From positions 64,001 to 128,000 of the forward strand of contig JBNKHE010000007.1 of NCBI GenBank assembly GCA_050290185.1: a stretch of 64,000 nt of DNA. The letters are read 5' to 3'. Position 1 is the first letter of the stretch. Every line of letters begins with the position of its first letter. Shown one piece after another: positions 46,814 to 63,409 of this stretch. The notes under the pieces were generated by a model. The model worked only from the letters and a program-made list of their open reading frames with translations. It searched no databases and was not told the origin of the DNA. Source of the stretch: Pontiella sp. (GTDB lineage Bacteria; Verrucomicrobiota; Kiritimatiellia; Kiritimatiellales; Pontiellaceae). The translations under genes were made by a program, and so were the position numbers.

Positions 46814-47761
46814 ATGGGTAAAACTTTCAGCAAAGTGGCTGTTTTGATGGGCGGTGTTTCATCGGAACGTGAAATTTCATTGAAATCGGGCAAAGCGATT
46901 GCGCAGGGACTGCGCGAGGGTGGATATGAGGTGCGGGAAATAGACATAACCGCAAAGCAGTTTTCCATCCCTGCGGATATCGAGGCGGTTTTTGTGGCGT
47001 TGCATGGGCAGTTTGGCGAGGATGGAGAAATTCAACAGATCCTGTCCGAAAAAGGAATGCCCTTCACGGGCTCGGGGCCGGAATCCAGCCGGGTCTCCTT
47101 CGACAAGATTCTAACCCGCCGGCAACTGGAGAAAAACGGCATTCCGATACCCCGGGGCGAGGTGGTTAAGAAAGCTTCGGACCGGACTGTTCCCGTACCG
47201 CTGGTGGTGAAACCACCCCGCGAAGGATCAAGCGTAGGGTGCTATCTGGTTTTCGAGGAACATGCGTGGGAGTCGGCATTCGAGGGCGCGGTGCAGTATT
47301 CCGGGGAGGTGCTGGTGGAGGAATACATCCCGGGTCGCGAGCTGACGGTCGGGGTGGTGGAGTCGATATCGCACGAGCCTTCGGCATCCGCTGTAGCTGC
47401 AGCAGACCAGTCGGCGACCAGACTCGTGCTGCCGGTGGTGGAGATAAAGACGGTGTCGGAGTGGTATGACTTCGATGCAAAATATGTGACCGGCGATACG
47501 CAGTATGTTGTACCTGCCGAGCTGGATGACGAGACAACTGTGCGGTTGCAATCCATCGCCCTTGCGACATTCGACTGCCTGGGAGCCTCGGGCTTTGGCC
47601 GGGTCGATTTCAGGCTGTCTCCCGAAGGCAAACCCTATGTGCTGGAGCTGAATGCCATCCCCGGATTTACCGCCACAAGTCTGCTCCCTAAAGCCGCTCA
47701 GGCGCATGGAATCGGTTTTTCAGAGCTTTGTTGTCGAATCATGGAAATGGCTCACTTGTGA
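46814..47761 (+). CDS. ddl: D-alanine--D-alanine ligase
   Basis: GGVSSEREIS, LHGQFGEDG, GSSVG, YDFDAKY, ELNAIPG. Confidence 0.95.
   Translation: MGKTFSKVAVLMGGVSSEREISLKSGKAIAQGLREGGYEVREIDITAKQFSIPADIEAVFVALHGQFGEDGEIQQILSEKGMPFTGSGPESSRVSFDKILTRRQLEKNGIPIPRGEVVKKASDRTVPVPLVVKPPREGSSVGCYLVFEEHAWESAFEGAVQYSGEVLVEEYIPGRELTVGVVESISHEPSASAVAAADQSATRLVLPVVEIKTVSEWYDFDAKYVTGDTQYVVPAELDDETTVRLQSIALATFDCLGASGFGRVDFRLSPEGKPYVLELNAIPGFTATSLLPKAAQAHGIGFSELCCRIMEMAHL
47736..47754 (+). repeat. attL core
   Basis: GAATCATGGAAATGGCTCA. Confidence 0.85.
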
Positions 47762-47857: not shown

Positions 47858-49570
47858 ATGATGACACCAATCAATATTCCGCATTCCAAGCCTAGAGGGA
47901 AGCGAGGCACCTATGTCTATCGCCGAAGTATTCCGAAGGAGCTGCGGGAGAGTGTTGGGCAATCTGAGTATGTGATTTCGCTGAAGACCTCCAATCCCGT
48001 TGAGGCTGCTCCTCTGGCCATTGCCTTGGATGAGGAGCATACAGCTCTCTTCAAGCGTCTTAAGAGGCAGCTGGCGGAAGGACGTAAACCTGTTGACCCA
48101 TTAGCCGCCTTCAACGAGGTGCTAGCTCCCATGGTTCGCGATAGGGTAAACAGCTTTCTTAACGATGATGATTTCCTTGGCTGTTCAACCGAAGCCCTAG
48201 AAGAATACCACTGGCAGCTTCAACAATGCCATGACCGACTCTTCAATCTCCCTGAACTGGGTGACTGTCTATTGGATATCCATCTGGTTCATGAGGGGGC
48301 AACGATGACTCTCAAGGATTCCATGAGGCGTTTCTGTGGGTGGGTCGAGAGTATGCCCTATGGGACATCTATTCGGCTGTGGCGAAGAGTGCGCGGTCTG
48401 TTTGATGAAGCTACTAAAGCTCTAGGCGACGGGATCAAGGAGGAGTTGGAGAATGCATCTCCAGCCGGTTGGGAGCCTAGACAGTTGGTGGCCGCTGCCG
48501 CCGTCACGAAGAGAGATGACTCCAGAGGCCGAAGTTTGCGGGTAATCCTGAAGGAGTACCTTGGGTTAAACACCAAACGTGCTCCGAGTGCTATTCAAGG
48601 GATGACAAGCGACTTGGACTTATTCTTGGAGTTCTGTCAGAAGAGCGATATGGCCGTGACGGATGTGACGAAAGCAATGCTTACCGCCTTTCGGGATGAC
48701 TGCCTAGTGAAGCTGCCAGCCCAAAGGCACAGGAAGAAGGAACTGAAGGGTAAGAGTCTCTCCGAATGTATTCGTATCACAGAGAAGGAAGGCTTTGCCA
48801 AGCTGACTCCTGTCACCATACATGGCCGCTTTAAGACCCTCAGGACGCTCCTAGAACACGCGAAGACCGAGGGTGATATCCAGAGGAACCCAGCGGCCAA
48901 CATCAAGGCGGGGGAGCGTATGAAGGTCATTGCAGGGGGCGGCATGATGAATAAGAAGGCGTTCACCGCTGATGAGACAGAGGAAATGAAGAAGCTCATT
49001 GGGGATGAAAGCTTCAATATTTGGTTGGAGACCCCCGACTTTAAGTGGATTACGGCAATCGGCTATCACCAAGGCATGCGGTTAGGGGAAGTAACCCAGC
49101 TACAGAGCAAGGATGTTTACCTAGATCAAAGTAGTGGGGCGTATGTCATTTCGATTAATGATGATCACGAGAAAAAGAGTCTCAAGAAGCAATCCTCTAG
49201 GCGAATCATTCCGTTGCATCCTGAGCTACGCAAAATGGGGTTTCTTGAATACATCGATGCCAAGGGTATGCAGCCAGATGATTTCATCTGGTCTCAGAGT
49301 CTGAGCTGGGAGCCAAAGTGTAAATGGTATGGTAAGTATACTTCCACATACAGACGAAAGATTGCACCTGTGGCAGTACCTGATGCAGACCGGAGGAGGG
49401 AGCTTAAAGGATATCATTCGCTACGGCATTCGGCAATCTCTCGGATGCTGGCCAATGGGATTCCTGAAGATGAACGCAAAGGTATCGTAGGGCATAGTGC
49501 GGGGGATGTTCATGCTGGATATGCTGGGGGCATTACCGTTCAGCAGATGGCTAAATGGATGACCTATTAG
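47858..49570 (+). CDS. Tyrosine recombinase/integrase with N-terminal DUF6538-like domain
   Basis: YVYRRSIP N-terminus; catalytic GMRLGE, HSLRH, VGH and HAGY. Confidence 0.92.
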   Translation: MMTPINIPHSKPRGKRGTYVYRRSIPKELRESVGQSEYVISLKTSNPVEAAPLAIALDEEHTALFKRLKRQLAEGRKPVDPLAAFNEVLAPMVRDRVNSFLNDDDFLGCSTEALEEYHWQLQQCHDRLFNLPELGDCLLDIHLVHEGATMTLKDSMRRFCGWVESMPYGTSIRLWRRVRGLFDEATKALGDGIKEELENASPAGWEPRQLVAAAAVTKRDDSRGRSLRVILKEYLGLNTKRAPSAIQGMTSDLDLFLEFCQKSDMAVTDVTKAMLTAFRDDCLVKLPAQRHRKKELKGKSLSECIRITEKEGFAKLTPVTIHGRFKTLRTLLEHAKTEGDIQRNPAANIKAGERMKVIAGGGMMNKKAFTADETEEMKKLIGDESFNIWLETPDFKWITAIGYHQGMRLGEVTQLQSKDVYLDQSSGAYVISINDDHEKKSLKKQSSRRIIPLHPELRKMGFLEYIDAKGMQPDDFIWSQSLSWEPKCKWYGKYTSTYRRKIAPVAVPDADRRRELKGYHSLRHSAISRMLANGIPEDERKGIVGHSAGDVHAGYAGGITVQQMAKWMTY

Positions 49571-49730: not shown

Positions 49731-52136
49731 TTAGGATTGTTGGGGTCTTTTCTTTATGAGTTTCCGGAACTGAGGTTGCTTGTTCCTCCATGTGAACCAA
49801 TACTCTACTCCAAGATAGAGCTCGTTCGTTCTGTCACAGATCTCAAAAAAATCCTTGTTATAAGATGCGTATTGCTTGTGTTTGTCGCTGGCTTTCTTCC
49901 ACGCTGTTGGCAAACCATTATGATCGGCACAGAGCTCTGTGCTGGTTAAAATCAGAATGTTATTGTATGGGCGACCAGCAACACGATTCGCTCTCGCCTT
50001 GTTTACCAATGGTTTAATCAACTTAATCTCATCAGGGCTCAACTTATCTTTCATGGTTGAAAAAACGAGAGTACAGCGTGGAAACTCTCTACCTAAGCGA
50101 CTCATGCGAGTGACATCTTTCTTTTCGAACAAGTTGAATGTTTTGCATTCTGCAAATATTACGATTTTCTTCGGGGCACCGTATCTTGATTCTTCGAAGA
50201 GAATCCCTAGGTCTGCTTCTAGGGGTTTTTGAGCTCCACCTTCTGATTTGCGAGCAGTAAAACTCATCATGGTAGTAGTAGCACCTTCAAAGACGCTTCT
50301 AAAAAACCTGAGTGACAGCAATACAGAGTAAGCACCTTGTGCGCTATTGGGTAAGCTAAACGGGCCGATCGTTCGGTAAGTCCATTTTAGAGCGTCAGGA
50401 TCTCCTGATGGTATTTCATAGGAGTCCAGACATTTTGGACACATCAGTGTGTAATCAGCTTCTGTGATTGAGAACCAAGACCGTTGCTGGCAAGTTGGGC
50501 ATTGACACTCTATCCCTAGTTGAAGCGCTCTACTATTTATTAACCCTTCGATAGTTCTGGTTCCGTCATCGTATAATCCTTCTTTATTGGCGATTTGTTT
50601 AATTCTATCGCGAAGTGCTTTCTTTTTTATGGTTTTCCCTTCGGAGTGCTCTGAAAGTAGCTTGATAACTCCCTTCGTAGCTAGAATGCCAATATACAAC
50701 TCTCCTCCGAGTTGCTTCAGCATTTGGGTTGCGATTCGTCCGGCTGTAGAGAGCTCAATATCCCATCCCTTTGCCTTCATCCATGAAGAAAAAACAGTTG
50801 TAGGGTTTAGAATCGGAACATGGATGTTCCATCTCGGAAAATCAGCTAAGTAAACTAGACCTTTTTTCGATAAGCGCCACTTAGGGTAGAACAATGGGAT
50901 ATGCATAGTTCTCTCATCATCTGGAAGAACTTCTGCTACAAGTTCGGAGATGGAATAGATGCGTACTTTTACTTCATTCGCAAAATGGGGGCCTCCACTC
51001 TGAGGGTATTTGGTAGCAAAAGATGGCGCTAAAGTATCGACGGTGGCTCGGTCTCCTGATACGCGTATATCATAACGGTCTACATTATCGCTCTCAATGG
51101 TATAGCTTACATTCTCCTGCGACTCATTTTGCCATATATGCGGGTACCAAGGTTGAGTAAAAAACTTAGCGTCACTCTTCTGCTCTGCAATAACTGCTCT
51201 TATATCCGAGATAAATGAATCTAGTTGATCTTTGGAGATATGAGCACTTGGTATTATAGTTGCCGCACGAATATCTGCCGGATTATCGGGGTTCCGATAT
51301 GTTTCTTCCGCCAAGAACTTAAACACTTGATCCAGTACGCTCTCGGTATCACTAACCTGAATCGGGATTGGTATTATGTTTCGCGCTGTCGCTCTGAGGT
51401 TTAAGTAATCGATGACATCTAGCGGCTGTGAAGCATCTAAGACGAATACACTTGAGTTGCCTAGGTGAAGATTTGTGGTTCGTACATCGCCGATGTAAAG
51501 AGAGGTCATTCTGCGATGAAATAAGTTCTGTGGATCAAGCAGGTCGAGAAAGTTGGTTAGTGAACAATCCACATCAACAAACTCTAGGGCGCTATACATT
51601 CCGCTCTTGGAATACAGTTCCTCAACTTCTTTACAGAGCGAGCCAAAGACAGAGGACAAAAAGAGTTTGTAAGGATGTCCGAAGGCTGGTGTTACTATTT
51701 TTGGGAGGTTACTGGGCTTAAATCGAAGCTCTTTTCTGTAATAATGGCGAAGTACCTCAAACGCACTAATACCATGAGAGATCGTTCCATCATTGCGAAT
51801 GCTTGCGATGAGGTCTGAAGCATATATGACTTCCCTGTTTTTACATGAAGAATGTTCCTTATCGGTTTTGTGGAAGCAGACAATGAAGTCTGGATCATAG
51901 CTATCTATATAACCTTTAACAAGGTCTGCTGGCTTCGCATTCGATGCAAATCGTTTTTTCCAGCTGCTAGGAATCCTTCTCAATAAAGGTATTGTTGGAT
52001 TATATTGTCCACCCCAAAGGAATGTATTGATTTCTATGGCCTTCAATAGTGATTTGGTGTCGTTGGGCCGAACCAGGAATGCGAGTCGTAATGGTCGAAG
52101 AGTTTGTTCAATATTGACATTGTCCATCGCATTCAT
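49731..52136 (-). CDS. Large hypothetical protein with Zn ribbon and C-terminal PD-(D/E)xK-like domain
   Basis: CPTC...CPKC; EAD...AECK; AAGGA RBS. Confidence 0.7.
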   Translation of the reverse strand: MNAMDNVNIEQTLRPLRLAFLVRPNDTKSLLKAIEINTFLWGGQYNPTIPLLRRIPSSWKKRFASNAKPADLVKGYIDSYDPDFIVCFHKTDKEHSSCKNREVIYASDLIASIRNDGTISHGISAFEVLRHYYRKELRFKPSNLPKIVTPAFGHPYKLFLSSVFGSLCKEVEELYSKSGMYSALEFVDVDCSLTNFLDLLDPQNLFHRRMTSLYIGDVRTTNLHLGNSSVFVLDASQPLDVIDYLNLRATARNIIPIPIQVSDTESVLDQVFKFLAEETYRNPDNPADIRAATIIPSAHISKDQLDSFISDIRAVIAEQKSDAKFFTQPWYPHIWQNESQENVSYTIESDNVDRYDIRVSGDRATVDTLAPSFATKYPQSGGPHFANEVKVRIYSISELVAEVLPDDERTMHIPLFYPKWRLSKKGLVYLADFPRWNIHVPILNPTTVFSSWMKAKGWDIELSTAGRIATQMLKQLGGELYIGILATKGVIKLLSEHSEGKTIKKKALRDRIKQIANKEGLYDDGTRTIEGLINSRALQLGIECQCPTCQQRSWFSITEADYTLMCPKCLDSYEIPSGDPDALKWTYRTIGPFSLPNSAQGAYSVLLSLRFFRSVFEGATTTMMSFTARKSEGGAQKPLEADLGILFEESRYGAPKKIVIFAECKTFNLFEKKDVTRMSRLGREFPRCTLVFSTMKDKLSPDEIKLIKPLVNKARANRVAGRPYNNILILTSTELCADHNGLPTAWKKASDKHKQYASYNKDFFEICDRTNELYLGVEYWFTWRNKQPQFRKLIKKRPQQS

Positions 52137-52691
52137 CCTTCTTTAACCCATCAACAAGTAACCTATTTCATTTTTTGGTGCAATCATCTGAATGCCTATA
52201 TGTGAAAGAAGCGAGTCCAAGTTTCCCCCGTGGGGGTATCGTTTCGATAGGGGTGGGGGAGCTGAAAACACCCACTAATAGGATGGGGAGACAGAAGGTC
52301 ATCCCATATGGTAAAGTTGTGCGGCTCGTTGCTTGGAGACTCCTAGTTGCTCTCCTATACGGGTAAAGCTCTGGCCTTCGGTCTCCACTATTGAAGAGGA
52401 AGACGCTCAGTCTCGGTATCATTCTGTATCAAATAGACCAATCAACAGCACAGGACTCGTTCTTCTTATTACGTTGTAGCCAAGCATATCAACACCGATT
52501 GCAAAACCGTACGTCGATCCTATTGTTCGACAGCATTGTGAGAGAATCCGAGTATTTACTGAGTCCCGCCCCAATCAAATCGACAAGCAACAGGGCTGAC
52601 CTCGTGACTTCTCTTAGCTGCTTACTTTAGGAAGAAAGCGTCCTTCTGAACGTCCAGTTCAAAGAATCGGTTTATTGTGTCTAGAATAGGT

Positions 52692-52898
52692 GGCACCCAT
52701 GCATGCTTCATCCCGCATATGAACCAGATTCTTAGGTCTGTATTCTGCCGCATGTATGGCGACACGAATATGCTGGCTGAGTTCAAGAGGCAGATCGAAG
52801 AGCAGAGCGAGGGCTTCGATGTGGAATACCCTGAGCCGCCTACCCAAGGCGGTCTCGATGTAAGTCAGGTGATGTATTCGCAGTACTTTTTTGCCTAG
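52692..52898 (+). pseudogene. C-terminal fragment of a T7-like single-subunit RNA polymerase
   Basis: GTHAC...MNQILRSVFCRMY...PEPPTQGGLDVSQVMYSQYFFA-stop; catalytic HDS and everything upstream are absent. Confidence 0.8.
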
Positions 52899-52940
52899 CC
52901 TGCATCACTAGTGTTACACCCTGTCAGAGAGGGTGTTGCG

Positions 52941-52963
52941 CTTATTCCCTCACTATAGGAAGA
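52941..52963 (+). promoter_or_regulatory. T7/T3-like phage RNAP promoter (+1 at G52958)
   Basis: CTTATTCCCTCACTATAGGAAGA vs T7 TAATACGACTCACTATAGGGAGA and T3 AATTAACCCTCACTAAAGGGAGA. Confidence 0.75.
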
Positions 52964-53294
52964 ATGACGGGCAACTCTCCGTTTCTCTTCAAGCCACACC
53001 CGTGGCCACTCTCTTGCGTATCAGCCTCACCGCCTTCCATGGTTTTTGTTTCTCCTGTCCATGGTCGAGCGGTCGAGCATCGCTTTGGTTTTGCTGAGCT
53101 GCTTGGCTAACTTAGTGGGGAACCTATGGGCTATTGCCCGTACCCGCTCAAAGCCTCACTCAAAGATTTTCTCTCGATGCATCTCAAACCGCTGCAAATA
53201 GATAGGTACATATTTGTAGTGTTTGTGGTCGCTTCACGAGGCAGCAACTTGTTTGCCCATTCCCATTTTAATCAACCTAAGAAAGGAACCCAAA

Positions 53295-55055
53295 ATGTTA
53301 AACACAAAAGAAGTATTCGACCTTGCAAGAGCACAGAAGTTAACCCTAACGGATGATCCGTTGGCAGTCGTAAATGCGTACCCAGATAGTCTCGGTGTTC
53401 AGCTTTTCGATTGGCTTTGGGGAGAACTCGTTGAGGAAGGCCGAACGACACGCAATAAGCCAAACTTTAAATGCACCCGAACGGGAAAGGACTTGCGCGG
53501 AGTTGAAGTTAAACGTCAAGCAATGGCCGCTGTGCTGCTAGACCTCCTGTATTATGATGTCGTGGCCATCTACGGTGACGAACATATGTACACGCGCAAA
53601 GTGGGGCTTCCTGATCGATTGTCAATCAGTGGAATAGCTGTTCCTTCATGGTATCGCTATTCATCACTTTTGGTTTGGCTTGAGGCTGAACTTAAGCACC
53701 GCAACCTGTTGACTGTTTCGCAGGGGTGGCCAACTTTTCAGAACGAGAAGAGCGGCTATAAGATCACAGGTAGGCCAAACCTTTGGGCTGCTGATGGGCG
53801 ACTTCTGACACGACTTGAACTCGTGAAATCCTGTTCCAATCTCGCGGGGTTCTTCCCAGAGAAACGGCGGGACTGTATCGACCTGAAGCAAAACGGGGAG
53901 TCGGACTATTTACGAGCACCAGACCTCCTGATTCAAAAGAAGGATGAACTTGGTAAGGCTCAACCTTGGGCTGTATCCGGTAACTCTCTTGCTGATGAAA
54001 CCCGAAGACGTTTACTCGCAGTCAATCGCTTCAATGTTGAACATGATTGGACGGCATACCGTGCGAATCTAAGTGATGCCTTGAGTATAAGCGACACTCT
54101 TCGGGAACGGTTACTGTTTGCTCAAAATATGGATGACAAGCAGAAGCGGAAAGCTCGTCGAAGAGCTGCCGCTGATATGCTCGGTGTAACACACGGAGGG
54201 GACATTGAGTTCCGCAAGACCGTTGAGGTGATGCCGAATGTCTTCTCCAATGTTGAAGTGCCGGTAGGTGTCTTATCAAAGCAGTCAGAGCCGATCTTCA
54301 AGAACATACCTGTTGACCGTCGAGGGAACACGATGCTTCTGGAGTACGAGCGGAAGCTGGTTGACCCATGGCACACCATGCGGATTGCTGGCAGTCGGTC
54401 GGAAGAGATGGCTATCGGTCGAATGTATTGGAGCATGTCGCATATTCAGAAAGCACTTCGATTTTCACTTCAGGTGAACGGAGAGTCGACAGTTGAATGG
54501 GACTTCAAAAATATGCATCCGAAAATCTTGTACGGTCGAGCCGGTATCAAAGAGGTAACCCATGACCTCTATGATTATGTGTGTGATGAAGTGGGGGACT
54601 CAGAGCTGGTCTTGAGGCCACTCGTTAAGGTGCTCTTCAATGCCATGATAAATGCTAAGACCCCCGATGAGGCATTTCGTGCCGCTAATCGGAGCATGTA
54701 TAAGAATCCACACCAACCAAAGAAGCGGGATGTTTGGCTACCCATTGCGGAGAAAGTCAGAGGTCTAAACAATGGAGTTTACTCTTCGGATTTTCTGATG
54801 CCGATTATCCGAAAAGTTCATGCCCCCATTGCCGATTATTTCTGTACCGGTATTGGAGTAGAGCTTCAGGCTGTGGACGCTGAGATCGCTCTGAGGGTCA
54901 TGGAAAGATGTACTCAAGATTACGGACAACCGGTTGTCGGTATTCACGATTCGTTCCGTGTCCAAGAGTCGGCTGAGAGTTCGCTCAGACAGGTGATGAG
55001 GGAAGTCTCGGAAGAGATTCTAGATGGGACGGTTCTGGAGATAACGAAGAGCTGA
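53295..55055 (+). CDS. Family A DNA polymerase / T7-RNAP-like palm polymerase of unknown function
   Basis: GRMY, motif A-like VEWDFKNMHPKILY, motif B-like RPLVKVLFNAMINA, LQAVDAEI, motif C GIHDSF; AAAGGAA RBS. Confidence 0.72.
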   Translation: MLNTKEVFDLARAQKLTLTDDPLAVVNAYPDSLGVQLFDWLWGELVEEGRTTRNKPNFKCTRTGKDLRGVEVKRQAMAAVLLDLLYYDVVAIYGDEHMYTRKVGLPDRLSISGIAVPSWYRYSSLLVWLEAELKHRNLLTVSQGWPTFQNEKSGYKITGRPNLWAADGRLLTRLELVKSCSNLAGFFPEKRRDCIDLKQNGESDYLRAPDLLIQKKDELGKAQPWAVSGNSLADETRRRLLAVNRFNVEHDWTAYRANLSDALSISDTLRERLLFAQNMDDKQKRKARRRAAADMLGVTHGGDIEFRKTVEVMPNVFSNVEVPVGVLSKQSEPIFKNIPVDRRGNTMLLEYERKLVDPWHTMRIAGSRSEEMAIGRMYWSMSHIQKALRFSLQVNGESTVEWDFKNMHPKILYGRAGIKEVTHDLYDYVCDEVGDSELVLRPLVKVLFNAMINAKTPDEAFRAANRSMYKNPHQPKKRDVWLPIAEKVRGLNNGVYSSDFLMPIIRKVHAPIADYFCTGIGVELQAVDAEIALRVMERCTQDYGQPVVGIHDSFRVQESAESSLRQVMREVSEEILDGTVLEITKS

Positions 55056-55288: not shown

Positions 55289-56092
55289 ATGCAAAAATCA
55301 AACAGAAGAAACTTCACGCCTTCACCCGTAGCTGTAGCAATGGCTTCCCCCAAAGGTGGACTGAGCCGCGAGGAACAGATAAGGCGTGACCGTCTGGCCA
55401 ACGCAAAGAAAGGATCGAATGAGGCCGTAAAGGTGAAGGCCAAAAGCCGTCGCTATGGGTTGACCCAGAAGGGGAATAGCTCCGGCATACCTTGTGTCGG
55501 TCTCGCTCGCTTCAACCCTAAGATGCTGAGTCGCCATACTCGGAAAAGCATTCTGCCCGCTCAGTTGGGGGTAGCTGCTGCATTGGGCCACCTACCAAGA
55601 GGAGATAAAACTCTCCCACTCCAAGCAATATGGCGACAACGTACACGAGCCGGTAGCGGCGACCGTGTAGCAAGGGGCTTGAAGCCAGCCAAGACGCGAG
55701 TAACAACGTGTCTCTTGGAAGCTGGCGTTTGGTCTGACACCGATAACGATGTCATTGCGGGGAAGTTCAAAGGATCTCACCTTGGATGCCAAGCGGCAGC
55801 GGATGGCTACTGCGAGAAACTCGGACAATGCCGCCTTTTGCTAGAGACCCTCGTGAGGCTTGGAGAGTTCTCTCAGCTACCCGATGCCAATCAGCGTCAA
55901 GATAAGCTACTGCATCTTCCTTCAAGTCGTACCTGTTGCGTAGGCTGGAAGCGGCTCCTGTACTGTCTGCTGCTGCCGACCAAATGCGCGGACTTCATGA
56001 CTGACTCAGCGCGTAACCTTGTTGCTCAACTGGCTAGGAACGCTGGGCTAACCGTTGACCGCCATGGGAACTGCGAGGAGCCGAAACGATGA
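55289..56092 (+). CDS. Hypothetical basic protein
   Basis: AAGGAG RBS; ATGA coupling to the next ORF. Confidence 0.6.
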   Translation: MQKSNRRNFTPSPVAVAMASPKGGLSREEQIRRDRLANAKKGSNEAVKVKAKSRRYGLTQKGNSSGIPCVGLARFNPKMLSRHTRKSILPAQLGVAAALGHLPRGDKTLPLQAIWRQRTRAGSGDRVARGLKPAKTRVTTCLLEAGVWSDTDNDVIAGKFKGSHLGCQAAADGYCEKLGQCRLLLETLVRLGEFSQLPDANQRQDKLLHLPSSRTCCVGWKRLLYCLLLPTKCADFMTDSARNLVAQLARNAGLTVDRHGNCEEPKR

Positions 56093-56181
56093 ACACAACA
56101 CAATCATGCAGCCGACTAAGCTTCAGAGAAAAAAGGGCAGTCCATACCGCCCGTGAGTGTATGGGGAAAGAAAGTAAATGA
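56089..56181 (+). CDS. 30-aa small ORF (absent from the ORF track)
   Basis: GAGGAG RBS; ATGA overlaps at both ends; MNTTQSCSRLSFREKRAVHTARECMGKESK. Confidence 0.55.
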   Translation: MNTTQSCSRLSFREKRAVHTARECMGKESK

Positions 56182-56789
56182 TTAGACAGCTAAGCTTCAC
56201 AGATGCTGTGAGGCGTGAGGCTCTTGCTAAAAGTAGACTTGAACGAGTCAACCAGAAGTTAGAAGCCATAGGGGATAATAAGTCCTCAACGATGAAGCGA
56301 GAGCTTCTGTCGAAGCGGGAACTGCTGCTGAAAAAGAAAGAAAGGCTTGAAGTGACCCTTCGAGATATTCAGCAGATGGTTGCTGCACACCAAACCAGAA
56401 CCGGTAAGGAACTTCCATATGTTCGGCATTGTCAGTTGAAGGCTGAGGCTGATGCCAAGGAACAACTGAGAGTAGAGCTTGAGCATCTGAAAGCAACTGC
56501 AACAGAACTCCCTGAGGGTGGCAAGGTAGTCAATGACTCCGATGCCATTCTTCAAGGTGTGAGTCAAGAAGCGTTGGACGCTGGGTTGCTCCAGATTCAA
56601 GAAACTCTCAGTGGTTTACTTAGAGGGAAGCCTCTGGTTGAAGTCCCCTCAGATGTTAAGCGTACACCGCCCAAGCCAAAGCCCAAGGTATCACCTGTAG
56701 CTGCCCCGATGAATAAACCCACGGTTGCACCTGCTCTAGACCTGAGCGGTCTTGATGAACTCTTGGCGGAATGCGAGGCGTTGCCGTGA
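56178..56789 (+). CDS. Hypothetical coiled-coil protein
   Basis: Heptad-rich N-terminal half, Pro/Lys-rich linker, acidic tail. Confidence 0.65.
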   Translation: MIRQLSFTDAVRREALAKSRLERVNQKLEAIGDNKSSTMKRELLSKRELLLKKKERLEVTLRDIQQMVAAHQTRTGKELPYVRHCQLKAEADAKEQLRVELEHLKATATELPEGGKVVNDSDAILQGVSQEALDAGLLQIQETLSGLLRGKPLVEVPSDVKRTPPKPKPKVSPVAAPMNKPTVAPALDLSGLDELLAECEALP

Positions 56790-57277
56790 GACATCCAGAA
56801 CATTCAAGGCACTACAGCCTAGAAGCAAGGCAGAAGCTGGATGCTATCTATCGGCGCATTGATCGAAACCAAATGATGAAGGAAGCAGAGCAGCTAAAGT
56901 ATCCTGAAGGCCGTCTCCCCACGCCATGGCCTGAGCGGTATCAACGGCTGTATGATAAGTGGCTAGAGTTGGAGCATGAAGGCTTCGCGATACGACTCCA
57001 TGAAAGTAGAAGATTCAATGATGAGCTTTCGTCCAAGTACTGCGAGAAACTCAGAAAGCTTCACTCCATCTGGCGGTACTTACCTGAAGATGATCCGCGA
57101 AAAGTTGCAACCCAAGCGGCCATCGAAAAGTTGGTGAATCATATCAATGGTCAGATGGAAGGCTTAGCCTATTTGTTTGTTCCTGAGCTGAAACCAACAA
57201 ACCGCCTTTGCGGTGGAATCTCAGATTCAGCACTCAATGAGATAGCCAGCGACTATGTTTCGAAAGCAGGGTGCTAA
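56786..57277 (+). CDS. Hypothetical protein
   Basis: GTG start overlapping the upstream TGA. Confidence 0.6.
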   Translation: MRHPEHSRHYSLEARQKLDAIYRRIDRNQMMKEAEQLKYPEGRLPTPWPERYQRLYDKWLELEHEGFAIRLHESRRFNDELSSKYCEKLRKLHSIWRYLPEDDPRKVATQAAIEKLVNHINGQMEGLAYLFVPELKPTNRLCGGISDSALNEIASDYVSKAGC

Positions 57278-57278
57278 G

Positions 57279-57653
57279 ATGGATGAACCTAAGGCCACCA
57301 CAAGCGACCGACTGAGTGCTCTATGCAATCAACTCCAGGGATTGCTCAAAGTCCGCCATGAGCTGCCTCATTTGACCGTCACACCGTCCGAGTTGGTTGA
57401 TCATGAGTCAGGTATGGTTTGTCTGACTGTCACCTTCAAGGACGGCAAGAAGCTCCTCTCGGTTATCACTGGAGATGCAGACCTCAATGCAGAGGAAGGT
57501 GTCAACGATATGGTGACACTCCGAGCGGAAGCCCATCGCTGCCTATGTGGGTATCTCCAGTCTATGTGGGATATGTTGGTCGCCAACGAAGAGTTGCTTG
57601 TGGACTTTAACTCGAAGATCCGCACAAAGAGAACTCTTGGCGGCGGTGCGTAA
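57279..57653 (+). CDS. Hypothetical protein
   Basis: ATG 1 nt after the upstream stop. Confidence 0.6.
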   Translation: MDEPKATTSDRLSALCNQLQGLLKVRHELPHLTVTPSELVDHESGMVCLTVTFKDGKKLLSVITGDADLNAEEGVNDMVTLRAEAHRCLCGYLQSMWDMLVANEELLVDFNSKIRTKRTLGGGA

Positions 57654-57905
57654 TCCCATCAAGAAACAAACAGTAGGTGAAGTGGCCTGCAACCCATCAC
57701 ATTTTATCCGTCGGTGAAATGACCGATACCCTAGACTCGACGGCAGAACTTGCCGCTCTTAACCGAACGTCCCTCAACACCTAAATCAGTAATCAAGACC
57801 CCGTTGTAGCTATGCATAAAGTATGGCGCGGGGTCTTGCTGGTTTACACCGATTGTATTTTGCAATCACAGGCTCTCTCCGCCTATGGAGAAGAAAGCAT
57901 GTACG

Positions 57906-58241
57906 ATGAAAAGTTACACTGACTACACCCCTGAAGAGTTGTCCGAACTCTCCAAAGACCCAGCTAGGTTTCAAGAGCTGGTTGCCGAGGCCAACGGCGA
58001 ACTTGCAATGAAGCAGAACGCTCAGCAAGCCGAACAGGCAATCGCTCAGAACAAAGCCAATGCTGAACTTGAAGTCACCCAAGAGCGCGAACGCCAAGTT
58101 GAAGACCTCCAGCAGCATTTGGATGCTCAAGGCTACAACGCAAAAATGACCGGCAAAGGGTTGGTCTTGAATACAGCTCCAATGAACCCGCTTACGGGTC
58201 GGGCCTATGGCGACACAGGTGCAACCGTAGACGCTGGCTAG
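57906..58241 (+). CDS. Hypothetical Q/E/A-rich helical protein
   Basis: Coiled-coil-like composition; start uncertain (57885 or 57906). Confidence 0.6.
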   Translation: MKSYTDYTPEELSELSKDPARFQELVAEANGELAMKQNAQQAEQAIAQNKANAELEVTQERERQVEDLQQHLDAQGYNAKMTGKGLVLNTAPMNPLTGRAYGDTGATVDAG

Positions 58242-58282
58242 AAACCGAACCACAATCAAAACTATCAAAAGGAATAAACTAA

Positions 58283-58843
58283 ATGAAAAACGAAGCAAAC
58301 ACCCAAGAGTTCACCCTGCCTAAGCAACTGAATATCACCACTACTGTTCCAACCTCACAGCTGCCTCTTCTTCGAGTTGAGACCGTCGAGGGAATGAGCA
58401 TTGCGGCAAACGACAGGGTGAACCTGCCTTGGTTGGCGGCCAATCTGCACCTAATCACTGAAGCCCAGTGGGAGTTCATTAAGTGCGACCTGAAGAGCAT
58501 CCTAATGGGAATCCTAATGGAGAACGTCAACGCGACGAAGCGGAACCAACGCATGGTCGAGACCGCCCAGAAGCAAGCAGACGCACGTAAGGCGGCTCAA
58601 GAGGAGTCCAACCTGTCTGACTTGAAGAAATACCTGTTGCCTTCCGAGGCCGCCATTATGGCTGCCACATGCGGGAACTCATCTTCCAAGGAAAAGAAGT
58701 TCATGGTGAACCTCTTCAAGGAGCTGGATATCATGAACCCAGACGGCTCGTGGAATGAACAGGGAATCTACATGCGAGAATGGGAGCTTGAGGCAAAACT
58801 TTTGGATCGTGAGCCTGTGAATCTCGTTGAAGTGCCGAAGTAA
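58283..58843 (+). CDS. Hypothetical protein
   Basis: AAGGA RBS; followed by a terminator. Confidence 0.65.
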   Translation: MKNEANTQEFTLPKQLNITTTVPTSQLPLLRVETVEGMSIAANDRVNLPWLAANLHLITEAQWEFIKCDLKSILMGILMENVNATKRNQRMVETAQKQADARKAAQEESNLSDLKKYLLPSEAAIMAATCGNSSSKEKKFMVNLFKELDIMNPDGSWNEQGIYMREWELEAKLLDREPVNLVEVPK

Positions 58844-59120: not shown

Positions 59121-59798
59121 GTGAAAGAGGGTTCTAGTAAGAAAAAAACTTCGATTGACTGGAAAGGTGTATGGGCCGCCGTCGGGTTGCTGTTTGTTGC
59201 ATCCTGCTTGTATTCATATACCCATGATACATTTGCCACACTGGGTGTGCTTATTTTTGCAGTTATAGTCATGGCGGCTAGAAAGAAATACAATGAATTG
59301 TTTGTTCTGATTTGCCTTTTCTCGTCCATATTTTTCTACATCATTGGTGCAGCACACATCGCAATCGTTATTGTGTGCATACTTCTCATTCAACAGTTCA
59401 TTCGCACCATCAATAGAAAATTTAACTATGATGAAGTTTTTCCTTATTTTGGCATATTAACGATCCTTATTGGGTTTTATTCTGGAATCTATGCAAAGTA
59501 CGGAATGCTGGAAAACGGAAAGCTGATTTACGATCAACCTAGCGCTACATATTTTAGTATCGTTACATGGACGACTCTTGGCTATGGGGATATCCAGCCG
59601 AGTGAAGAATCAAGAGGTTGGGCTGCAAGCGAAGCACTGTTAGGTTATATTTTCATGGCACTTGGCATCGCATTGTTTGCTCATGTAGTGAACTCTAGGC
59701 AACATTTGCGCTCAGAAATGGGGGCGATGAAGATTAGTGAGAACGAAGCACCCGCTTCACAATCGCATAATAACGGTGATAGAAATGACACTCGGTGA
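59121..59798 (+). CDS. Potassium-channel-family membrane protein (Ion_trans_2-like)
   Basis: YFSIVTWTTLGYGDIQP pore/selectivity filter; extra N-terminal TMs. Confidence 0.82.
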   Translation: MKEGSSKKKTSIDWKGVWAAVGLLFVASCLYSYTHDTFATLGVLIFAVIVMAARKKYNELFVLICLFSSIFFYIIGAAHIAIVIVCILLIQQFIRTINRKFNYDEVFPYFGILTILIGFYSGIYAKYGMLENGKLIYDQPSATYFSIVTWTTLGYGDIQPSEESRGWAASEALLGYIFMALGIALFAHVVNSRQHLRSEMGAMKISENEAPASQSHNNGDRNDTR

Positions 59799-60720: not shown

Positions 60721-61299
60721 TCATGACAGGGTGGTTTGATTCCCTCGCCGCAAATCAGCAGGAAGTAGTTTGTCGATTTCTTGTTCTGAAAACGTGAGTT
60801 CTTCGTTTACCTGTAATGCTGTCGTTGCGGCCTTATATGCCTTGCTGATAGTGCGGGGGCTTCCTTCATAAATATTTTTCAACTGCATTTGCAGAGCATC
60901 CCTTCTGTTAATTATTTCATCGGTGTTGATGACTCCGGCATTGATGTCAGTTAGAAGGGCTAAATAGCTTTCACGCACATCCCATAGGTCATTTGCTGCA
61001 TCAGAGTGTTTTTGTGAAACTTGGCCGAGGTCACTTCCTTTGACGTAGGTGTTAAGTGCTAGCAACGCCGCAGAGATAAGACCTGTTATAATGCCGCATA
61101 CTGGACTCTCTCCCAGCACGGTGGTAAATACGCCTGTGGTTGTTAATGCCGACAAGATAATCTGAATGATTTTGATGGTTGAGTTGCGTGAGAATACAAT
61201 GTCAGCACACTTTTCTTGGGTTTTGTGGCTCCATGCAACTCGACCAAAGCATTCACGGATATGCGACTCAAGGATCTTAACTTGGGAATCGGACGCCAT
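60721..61299 (-). CDS. SLATT-family 2TM effector (CBASS)
   Basis: IRECFGRVAWSHKTQEKCAD, two TMs, PRT...AY; overlaps the CD-NTase gene. Confidence 0.85.
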   Translation of the reverse strand: MASDSQVKILESHIRECFGRVAWSHKTQEKCADIVFSRNSTIKIIQIILSALTTTGVFTTVLGESPVCGIITGLISAALLALNTYVKGSDLGQVSQKHSDAANDLWDVRESYLALLTDINAGVINTDEIINRRDALQMQLKNIYEGSPRTISKAYKAATTALQVNEELTFSEQEIDKLLPADLRRGNQTTLS

Positions 61300-62158
61300 A
61301 AATCTCTCTCCATTTCTGCTTTGCTGACCATTCTTTATTTTTTGACTGATATTCGATTGCTTCAAGTGATTTATTATATGCAACTGTCGCTTTATATCTG
61401 AAGTTTGTAATGTTTGAAATCCACTGACCACTACCTATTGCAAACCACAAGGTTTTATCTGATGGCTCGTTCTTGAGATATTGAAAAAAATCTCGGCTCA
61501 TCCAGTCATAGTACAGGTAAGATTGGTGTTTATTACTCCAGTTGGTAAGAAAACGGTAGGCGAGAGTATCGATTAGAAGACCATTAATCGGAACTGTGCA
61601 GTAATATTTCCATGCCCGAGCCATTCGGCATAGGTTTTTTAGGTTATAGTTGGTAAGAATGTTCCCGTTGTTGATGGCGTCTATTTCGGGAATCGGATTC
61701 GTGACCTTCCAGCTTCCACCATTATTTGAGTCTGCATGAGTGTATTTATTATCAGTACCTACTTTGAAAACAGGGAGTACCTCAAACTTCGTCTGGTCGG
61801 AAAAATCCACTGTAACTATCTGACCGTCCCCTTTAAGTGTGGTCGTTGGATATGTTTTGGCAATAGAGTTCTTTACAGCCTGAATCAATGCTGACTGGCC
61901 ATTTCCAAGATAATCACTGTATTGGTGGTATGTTCGTAGTGGCATTTCAAATAGCATGTCAATATCACTTACCCACCCATTAGCAGTTCCGCGACCGTAT
62001 GAACCCACGAATCTTCCTCCTGAGGTCGTGTCCATGTGCCAGAAATCAAGATTTAGGCGCTTACAAATAGCTAAATACCTATCTGAAATAGTCGACTTCA
62101 TATTTGTGGAGATCTTTAGATCATCGCTAAAGTGCTTAAAATATTGCTCTTCACTCAT
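61277..62158 (-). CDS. SMODS/CD-NTase cyclic oligonucleotide synthase (CBASS)
   Basis: VGSYGRGT...SDID, GDGQIV, FEVLP, GGSWKVTNP, LCRMARAW. Confidence 0.9.
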   Translation of the reverse strand: MSEEQYFKHFSDDLKISTNMKSTISDRYLAICKRLNLDFWHMDTTSGGRFVGSYGRGTANGWVSDIDMLFEMPLRTYHQYSDYLGNGQSALIQAVKNSIAKTYPTTTLKGDGQIVTVDFSDQTKFEVLPVFKVGTDNKYTHADSNNGGSWKVTNPIPEIDAINNGNILTNYNLKNLCRMARAWKYYCTVPINGLLIDTLAYRFLTNWSNKHQSYLYYDWMSRDFFQYLKNEPSDKTLWFAIGSGQWISNITNFRYKATVAYNKSLEAIEYQSKNKEWSAKQKWREIYGVRFPS

Positions 62159-62978: not shown

Positions 62979-63356
62979 CAAAACTCCAGAGAAACCTTGG
63001 TCTTAAACCCAACAAGAAATGCTAGAGGCCATGGCAGACCCTAGATATTCGACTTGTGAATCATGCCGAAGAACAGTTCGAGACAGATTTAAATGCTCAC
63101 CTTGGTTTGAGGTCGATATCCCCAAAAAACCTAAAGCCCATTTTCTTGACCATCTCAGGCATCTGAGCGGAGCCGCAAAGGGCTGAACATTCAAGTGCAA
63201 GACCGGTTTGGCTTGGAGATTTCTTGCTGAGGCGAAATTATTTTCATACCTCGACCTGATACAGCAATCAGTACATATTTCAAAATGTATCAAAATATCA
63301 CCTTTTGTAAGGTTTTGCATTGCAGTGATTTAGTGTTTTGGTCGAAGGTGGGCGTT

Positions 63357-63375
63357 GAATCATGGGAATGGCTCA
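63357..63375 (+). repeat. attR core with displaced original ddl 3' end
   Basis: GAATCATGGGAATGGCTCA followed by T CTA TAG. Confidence 0.85.
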
Positions 63376-63409
63376 TCTATAGTTTTCTCATTGATTCAGA
63401 GGTACACGA

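Follow-up and report, generated by a model that had tools for sequence, protein, structure and literature searches.

The 64,000-nucleotide stretch of Pontiella sp. DNA analysed here (the window) carries a 15.6-kb genomic island, which interrupts ddl at its 3′ end and has a GC content of 47% against 52-54% around it. The island is bounded by a direct repeat (D9), its 22-bp attL core lying at the ddl 3′ end (47733..47754, + strand) and its attR, identical at 20/22 positions, directly before ftsQ (63354..63375, +); in relatives the site is empty, ddl adjoining ftsQ with a single copy of the att core. Integration takes place in the last ddl codons, within the dcw cluster, the island supplying a new 3′ end to the gene (47733-47761, 63354-63382). 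Inside attL we find a DUF6538-type tyrosine integrase (47858..49570, +; Pfam DUF6538 6e-14, Phage_integrase 1.5e-6) and then, on the opposite strand, a gene for an 801-aa cargo protein (49731..52136, −) that has no Pfam, NCBIfam or PADLOC match above cut-off and belongs to an unnamed conserved family (136 relatives among 7,999 candidates scored); it is a candidate defence nuclease, having two CxxC pairs and, close to its C-terminus, what looks to the eye like a PD-(D/E)xK motif.

Next along the + strand, behind a short phage-derived segment described below, is the gene considered here (53295..55055), followed by six co-directional ORFs (55289..58843, +) that profile searches assign to no family and that possibly form one operon with it; for the first of the six no relative was found, and none of them matches the loci of relatives or the phage. 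The island is completed by a two-TM potassium-channel-like gene (59121-59798; Ion_trans_2, E 1e-9) and a CBASS pair comprising a SMODS cyclase and a SLATT_4 2TM effector (60721..62158, −; PADLOC 1e-119 and 5e-77, together with Pfam). Profile searches detect no helicase or primase domain in the island, no replication origin was identified, a repeat scan shows no iterons, and the contigs of four runs hold no attL-attR circle joint, a type of data that cannot show absence. A prior sequence-only reading had supposed a polymerase from a mobile element; the att-flanked island, its integrase and the empty site in relatives agree with this.

The gene encodes a protein of 586 aa, here P0001, identified from its ORF and from profile and structure searches as a winged-helix (wHTH)-polymerase of the TV-Pol / divPolA2 family (PHROG 4756). 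An RBS-like AAGGAA lies 8-13 nt 5′ of its ATG; the alternative start upstream, TTG 53223, has no such site. The catalytic core (54417..54956, +) consists of a hairpin Arg (G375-R376-M-Y), motif A (E401-W-D403-F-K-N-M-H408-P, H408 occupying the place of the steric gate), motif B (R441-P-L-V-K445-V-L-F-N-A-M-I-N453-A) and motif C (G-I-H551-D552-S553-F). PHROG 4756, a family of unknown function, matches residues 375-574 (E 8e-35), and phmmer against 1.84 billion representatives returns 3,139 proteins at E ≤ 1e-3 (466 at 1e-10); just one of these, P0002, aligns over the full length, at 29% identity. Its genomic locus was sought but not found, one search giving two distant loci. For P0001 no match passes the cut-off in Pfam, NCBIfam or PADLOC, a PDB sequence search is likewise empty, and a word-based protein search recovers only the self-match.

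Conservation was assessed in an alignment of 125 sequences, P0001 and 124 of the 149 other listed phmmer matches, with fragments mostly left out; being made from the best matches to P0001, it is biased to P0001 residues. R376, R389, K445 and H551 are invariant (125/125), D403 is kept in 124/125 and D552 in 123/125, and the fingers Asp and the RxxxK pair are represented by D424 (116/125) and R441 (123/125); 110/125 sequences hold the full set D403/H408/R441/K445/N453/H551/D552/S553. The strings quoted in the sequence-only reading (GRMY, FNAMINA and GIHDSF) are thus all present in the frame and conserved across the alignment; judged from the sequences, the presence of these motifs is not down to chance.

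We compared AlphaFold models of whole P0001 and of its N-terminal part alone with known structures by VIA-align. In our model, residues 190-586 adopt the core fold common to PolA and T7 RNAP, with matches to the apicoplast Pol (Z 14.3, rmsd 6.5 over 279 residues), Klenow (Z 13.0), yeast mtRNAP (Z 11.8, rmsd 3.8 over 235, the lowest rmsd) and T7 RNAP (Z 10.5); the best structural matches in BFVD are divPolA2 phage proteins, including that of Barba31A (E 1e-13). The core aligns to PolA palms, with D403 ending the strand 397-404 and D552 placed in the 548-557 hairpin, in agreement with the RRM palm and its two conserved Asp in TV-Pol. R376 lies on strand 376-378 of a beta-hairpin, and a two-helix thumb is formed by helices 232-248 and 259-295 (pLDDT 50-91). 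Residues 297-360 constitute a low-confidence insertion of ~60 residues, common to P0002.

Where PolA has its exonuclease, the model places a winged-helix domain (residues ~67-180; 53493..53834, +), with ADAR1 Z-beta, MarR, eS10/eS19 and MotA among its matches; the best of these (Z 6.3, rmsd 3.0 over 75 residues) is weak, at the level of a common fold and below that which proves homology. Folded alone, the N-terminal part returns almost only winged-helix proteins, in agreement with the search using the whole protein, and the domain has weak profile matches to PadR/S19e (E 0.1-0.6). No exonuclease appears among the 50 matches listed for the N-terminal model, and the acidic pattern of such an enzyme was not found in residues 1-371, where just 2 columns of the 125-sequence alignment are ≥60% acidic. 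Modelled in this way, P0001 would comprise a winged-helix head on a minimal family-A polymerase core without exonuclease. The absence of a recognisable exonuclease, claimed from the letters, therefore stands, a winged helix occupying its place; the ~370 aa of N-terminus that had been left unassigned become partly assignable, to the winged helix and the thumb helices (232-295), the insertion at 297-360 remaining of low confidence.

To place the active site we compared P0001, by motif offset, with a T7-like RNAP (from locus L011) and a phage DNA polymerase (L012). Five residues beyond the motif A Asp (D+5) the RNAP has Gly, the DNA polymerase Glu and P0001 His (H408); at K+8 of motif B both reference enzymes have Tyr-Gly and P0001 Asn453-Ala454; for motif C, P0001 shares HDS with the RNAP, the DNA polymerase having HDE. 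The description of HDS as RNAP-like is therefore apt, the same triplet being found in the T7-like RNAPs compared. Motif B had been described as replaced, which is right for the O-helix Tyr-Gly at K+8 but not for RxxxK itself, which is ordinary. P0001 has 98 residues from K+8 to motif C, where the L011 RNAP has 157 and the L012 DNA polymerase 113. The specificity loop of T7 RNAP is located between motifs B and C, and the short interval in P0001 therefore leaves no room for it. All three marks of DNA polymerase I—the Glu gate, the YG of motif B and an HDE motif C—are likewise absent. Since Glu is the steric gate in family A and His acts as one in PolC (PMC13492167), the choice between NTP and dNTP is not readable from H408. 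The gate residue and motif C co-vary (Glu with FDE in AUR84708, L019:3470-4762; His with HDS in 110/125 relatives); from these sequences, the family may hold both DNA-type and RNA-type subgroups.

The family itself is already in print (2008, 2024), and P0001 is a new member of it. Our family profile (A1, which includes P0001) matches the divPolA2 representative AUR84708 (MG592441.1:25475-26710 = AUR84708.1) at E 3.4e-44 over profile positions 31-430, and so over both domains, and matches the ICP1 protein ADX88146 at 1e-59. According to Yutin et al. 2024 (PMC11348598), divPolA2 proteins have an active palm, no exonuclease and an uncharacterised N-domain, with roles as repair DNA polymerase or RNA polymerase favoured. 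P0001 shares the active palm, the lack of exonuclease and an N-terminal globular domain, but differs in setting: divPolA2 proteins of barbaviruses and of Vibrio/Aeromonas phages are phage-encoded beside a regular PolB, whereas P0001 resides on a chromosomal island with no such context. We regard the phage/PolB setting as context rather than as part of the definition, because the family also occurs in 17/401 genomes of the phylum. AUR84708 further differs in its DNA-polymerase-like Glu at D+5 and FDE motif C, where P0001 has His and HDS and is ~150 aa longer.

The TV-Pol connection, raised in the sequence-only reading, is also sustained. Iyer, Abhiman and Aravind (2008, PMC2579912) described a subset of TV-Pol proteins that carry an extra N-terminal domain, known stand-alone as well, and are encoded beside integrases, resolvases or transposases, and predicted primase-polymerase activity for this subset; the signature D-x4-H, K-x7-N, HD[SG] and the recombinase-linked context of P0001 fit this subset. 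P0001 has the TV-Pol thumb, hairpin Arg, two palm Asp, fingers Asp and RxxxK and no nuclease, and its family shares the TV-Pol neighbourhoods of integrase, resolvase or transposase among defence genes; the N-domain was predicted to be all-helical in the 2008 paper, whereas our model of it is a winged helix. One locus (L065:5299-6195, G332:C128) encodes a stand-alone winged-helix N-domain with no polymerase core, comparable to the stand-alone TV-Pol N-domain described in 2008. Ma-LMM01, named in the same paper, has no match to the family profile at E 0.1; its best ORF, gp030, matches weakly (E 0.002 pairwise, 0.58 genome-wide), carries the same hairpin-R, D-x4-H, K-x7-N-G and HD-G signature and adjoins two transposases, from which neighbours we infer it to be the TV-Pol of the 2008 paper. 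On sequence grounds, then, P0001 would be a divPolA2 by tested profile match and a TV-Pol by motifs and context. The view that divergent members are poorly characterised needs qualifying to this extent: the family has been described under both names, and for the wHTH-bearing branch no measured activity was found in the literature searched, which did not cover most subscription journals.

Two further comparisons help to delimit what P0001 might do. According to two reports (PMC7581432; bioRxiv 2022.12.02.518924), the only assayed TV-Pol is CcPol-MP of SCCmec, a primase; like P0001 it has a family-A core, lacks an exonuclease and is encoded on an island with a recombinase, and it shows that such a core can prime. 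The same sources describe it, however, as Pol I-derived, keeping E710/F762, using dNTPs, needing an OB-fold SSB and adjoining a helicase, none of which is seen for P0001; among the downstream ORFs, where an SSB or helicase partner might lie, profile searches give no family match. Because of its SSB requirement, its retained E710/F762 and its use of dNTPs, we place CcPol-MP in a different branch from P0001. T7-like single-subunit RNAPs, for their part, have the palm fold, RxxxK and HDS motif C in common with P0001, but are 820-840 aa long against 586 aa and have the D+5 Gly, the O-helix Tyr-Gly, the specificity loop and a promoter-binding N-domain, all of which P0001 lacks, having a winged helix instead.

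Beyond P0001 itself there are 16 matches in the phylum, 15 of which were fetched as loci, one contig being too short. At 11/15 a tyrosine or serine recombinase lies within ≤6 kb of the family gene (two are DUF6538-type), a twelfth has transposases, and at L060 and L051 the integrase beside the family gene is similar to that of our island. Over 17 loci (15 from the phylum and two from metagenomes), the scan covered 147 of the 174 ORFs nearby and turned up neither a helicase nor a primase domain. The family is also carried by lytic phages such as ICP1. Amongst individual members, L059:7780-10590 (G249:C2) encodes a 937-aa fusion of a reverse transcriptase (RVT_1, E 5e-12, residues 144-285) to a full family member (544-936); it adjoins an MmeI-type RM gene and recalls the UG9 RT + PolA systems. 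A 689-aa member, L061:9605-11671 (G208:C71), sits in a prophage with terminase, ~430 unrelated N-terminal residues replacing most of the winged helix.

The reading we favour, tentatively and with a little less than even confidence, is by analogy: P0001 may initiate replication of the island after excision, acting at a specific site and needing no primer. The integrase would excise the island (the att sites being observed), the winged-helix head would then bind somewhere specific on it, and a chain would be started without a primer by the minimal palm/fingers core; the product would probably be a short RNA or mixed primer, because P0001 lacks the Glu that serves PolA as steric gate, and host replication proteins would extend it. 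The priming and replication role is drawn from the prediction of Iyer et al. (2008) and from the primase CcPol-MP. In its favour are the core fold, the conserved catalytic residues, the profile match to AUR84708, the signature of Ma-LMM01 gp030, the recombinase linkage, and the att duplication with its empty site; against it count the absent helicase, the failure to find an island origin or, in contigs, a circle joint, the weakness of the gp030 match, the separate branch of CcPol-MP, and the preference of Yutin et al. (2024) for repair or RNA polymerase roles.

A rival reading is a miniature single-subunit RNA polymerase, its winged helix reading a promoter of its own (distinct from the T7-like site discussed below) and its core transcribing the island genes. 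The HDS of motif C, which two T7-like RNAPs also have, the missing Glu gate and the low rmsd to mtRNAP (3.8 Å) point this way, Yutin et al. (2024, PMC11348598) raise the option, and a neighbouring Atlas cluster is named ‘DNA-directed RNA polymerase family protein’, albeit automatically. We nonetheless consider it unlikely: there is neither a Gly at D+5 nor an O-helix Tyr, the interval between motifs B and C is 98 rather than 157 residues, P0001 has none of the bulk that processive RNAPs carry at the N-terminus and exit channel, repeat searches found no repeated island promoter, and a His can serve as steric gate, as reported for PolC (PMC13492167).

A role as defence or repair cargo—a nucleotidyltransferase acting as an error-prone gap filler, or making abnormal nucleic acid during phage infection—appears rather unlikely to us. 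Defence genes often adjoin the family (CBASS here; AbiEii, RloB, MmeI and AIPR in relatives), umuDC adjoins the member at L052, and the RT fusion at L059 has its parallel in the UG9 RTs, which, according to PMC9226505, function together with a polymerase of family A and show enrichment in defence islands. Saying this, any integrative island normally carries defence genes, the partner genes differ between loci, P0001 has no PADLOC match, and the presence of the family in lytic phages such as ICP1 also speaks against it.

The feature specific to this locus, seen once, is the phage RNAP-promoter relic ahead of P0001. The 285-bp segment (52691..52975, +) is a remnant of a temperate T7-like phage, comprising the last 68 codons and stop of an RNAP gene (52692-52898) plus spacer; the short ORF 52677-52898 corresponds to the extreme C-terminus of a T7-like RNAP (Pfam RNA_pol, E 5e-10; PHROG 414, positions 751-816 of 816), and the segment has 73% DNA identity to the RNAP gene end and next spacer at L012 (G061:C12), the one close relative that a scan of genome contigs brought up. 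Over 69 codons, 26 are identical, 30 synonymous and 13 changed, with no stop, so that the relic is undecayed. The phage at G061:C12 (L029-L031) is temperate, T7-like and 43.9 kb long, with integrase, RNAP, gp2.5, portal and capsid, the structural module being on the opposite strand; it has nothing in common with the P0001 genome beyond the relic, and no other piece of a T7-like RNAP gene is present in that genome. Chimeric assembly is ruled out by an X4 contig that spans 52503-53880, and thus both junctions, at flat depth (one study only).

Within the relic is a T7-like promoter site (52942..52963, +). The phage has six repeats of such a site, and the core CCCTCACTA at 52947-52955 is in register with one of them; the phage repeats take the form CTG[AG/C]CCCCTCACTA, five with TAGGG 6-8 nt later, where the T7 layout is contiguous instead. 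The site points into P0001 from ~340 nt upstream, the relic ending ~20 nt past the core. It is significant by synteny only and not by motif score: it scores 7.1, a value reached at 412 genome positions, while those of the phage itself score 23-25; the T7-like motif has 1 match at ≤2 mismatches (1.78 expected), and CCCTCACTA occurs 4 times in the genome (2.6 expected), the 13-mer being unique. Since it lacks the phage's upstream CTGAC and has a low matrix score, the site either derives from a sister phage of other specificity or has drifted; by eye, we take it to be nearer the T7/T3 consensus. The 342 nt 3′ of the promoter have a folding z of −3.4 (single sequence), and a sigma-70 scan gives background level only.

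A T7-like RNAP gene is present at none of the other 19 loci of the family, and a one-mismatch promoter core occurs at 1/19, outside the upstream region of the family gene; the shared spacer motif is confined to the G061:C12 phage among genome contigs and absent from viral contigs, eight viral contigs with the site's 16-mer being taken as chance with no RNAP nearby. PF00940 was found in 0/201 genomes of the class at E 1e-4, in a search run without a positive control. No report of a T7-like promoter ahead of such a polymerase gene was found in the literature searched, the PICMI ‘RNA polymerase’ proving a false lead (a DUF3987 primase). The suggestion that P0001 might itself read this promoter is not borne out: self-recognition is unsupported because there is no room for a specificity loop and no T7-like RNAP gene at the 19 loci, and the site arrived with a piece of phage RNAP gene. 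Going by the sequence context, its natural reader would be the phage enzyme and not P0001, and most likely both relic and promoter are incidental to P0001.

If the promoter works, this is an island coupled to the RNA polymerase of a helper; otherwise the relic is an ordinary recombination scar. Had the island captured a working promoter on purpose, a T7-like temperate phage would, on infection or induction, use its RNAP to transcribe P0001 and the ORFs behind it, a coupling we consider improbable; we hold it equally doubtful that the island is a satellite of such phages, in which the helper RNAP would switch on, or prime for, a wHTH-polymerase that starts island replication, CBASS also being carried. 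The primary origin of T7 lies just behind gene 1, and by analogy the captured segment would perhaps also include a helper origin. The orientation of the site, the end of the relic so soon after its core, the undecayed codons and the temperate habit of the related phage suit such a coupling; against it stand the single instance, the 0/19 loci with RNAP, the restriction of the spacer motif to one phage, the low score, the 200 bp of useless coding sequence that came along, and the lack of recognised capsid-hijack or packaging genes. Islands with T7-like promoters, integrase-bearing and with no RNAP of their own, were reportedly described in enterobacteria by Chen and Schneider in 2006; they resemble ours in pairing an integrase with a T7-like promoter, but are said to have tandem promoters, whereas here a single site lies inside an RNAP-gene relic before a TV-Pol gene.

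That P0001 is an inactive or decaying passenger is highly improbable, for although it is very divergent (29% identity to its only full-length relative) and has the 60-residue low-confidence insertion, its catalytic positions are all intact, frame and RBS are in place, and the insertion is common to P0002. To return to the initiator reading and the enzyme behind it, the core of this family is near the smallest common to DNA polymerase I and T7 RNA polymerase, and so bears on NTP/dNTP choice and on priming; being divergent and having a long insertion, P0001 is itself a poor model of the family. Two further members, at L039 (G429:C18) and L041 (G238:C111), contain 6 and 4 in-frame TAG codons, respectively, at least one at a common position, with motifs otherwise intact, which suggests from sequence that these elements come from a TAG-recoded source.
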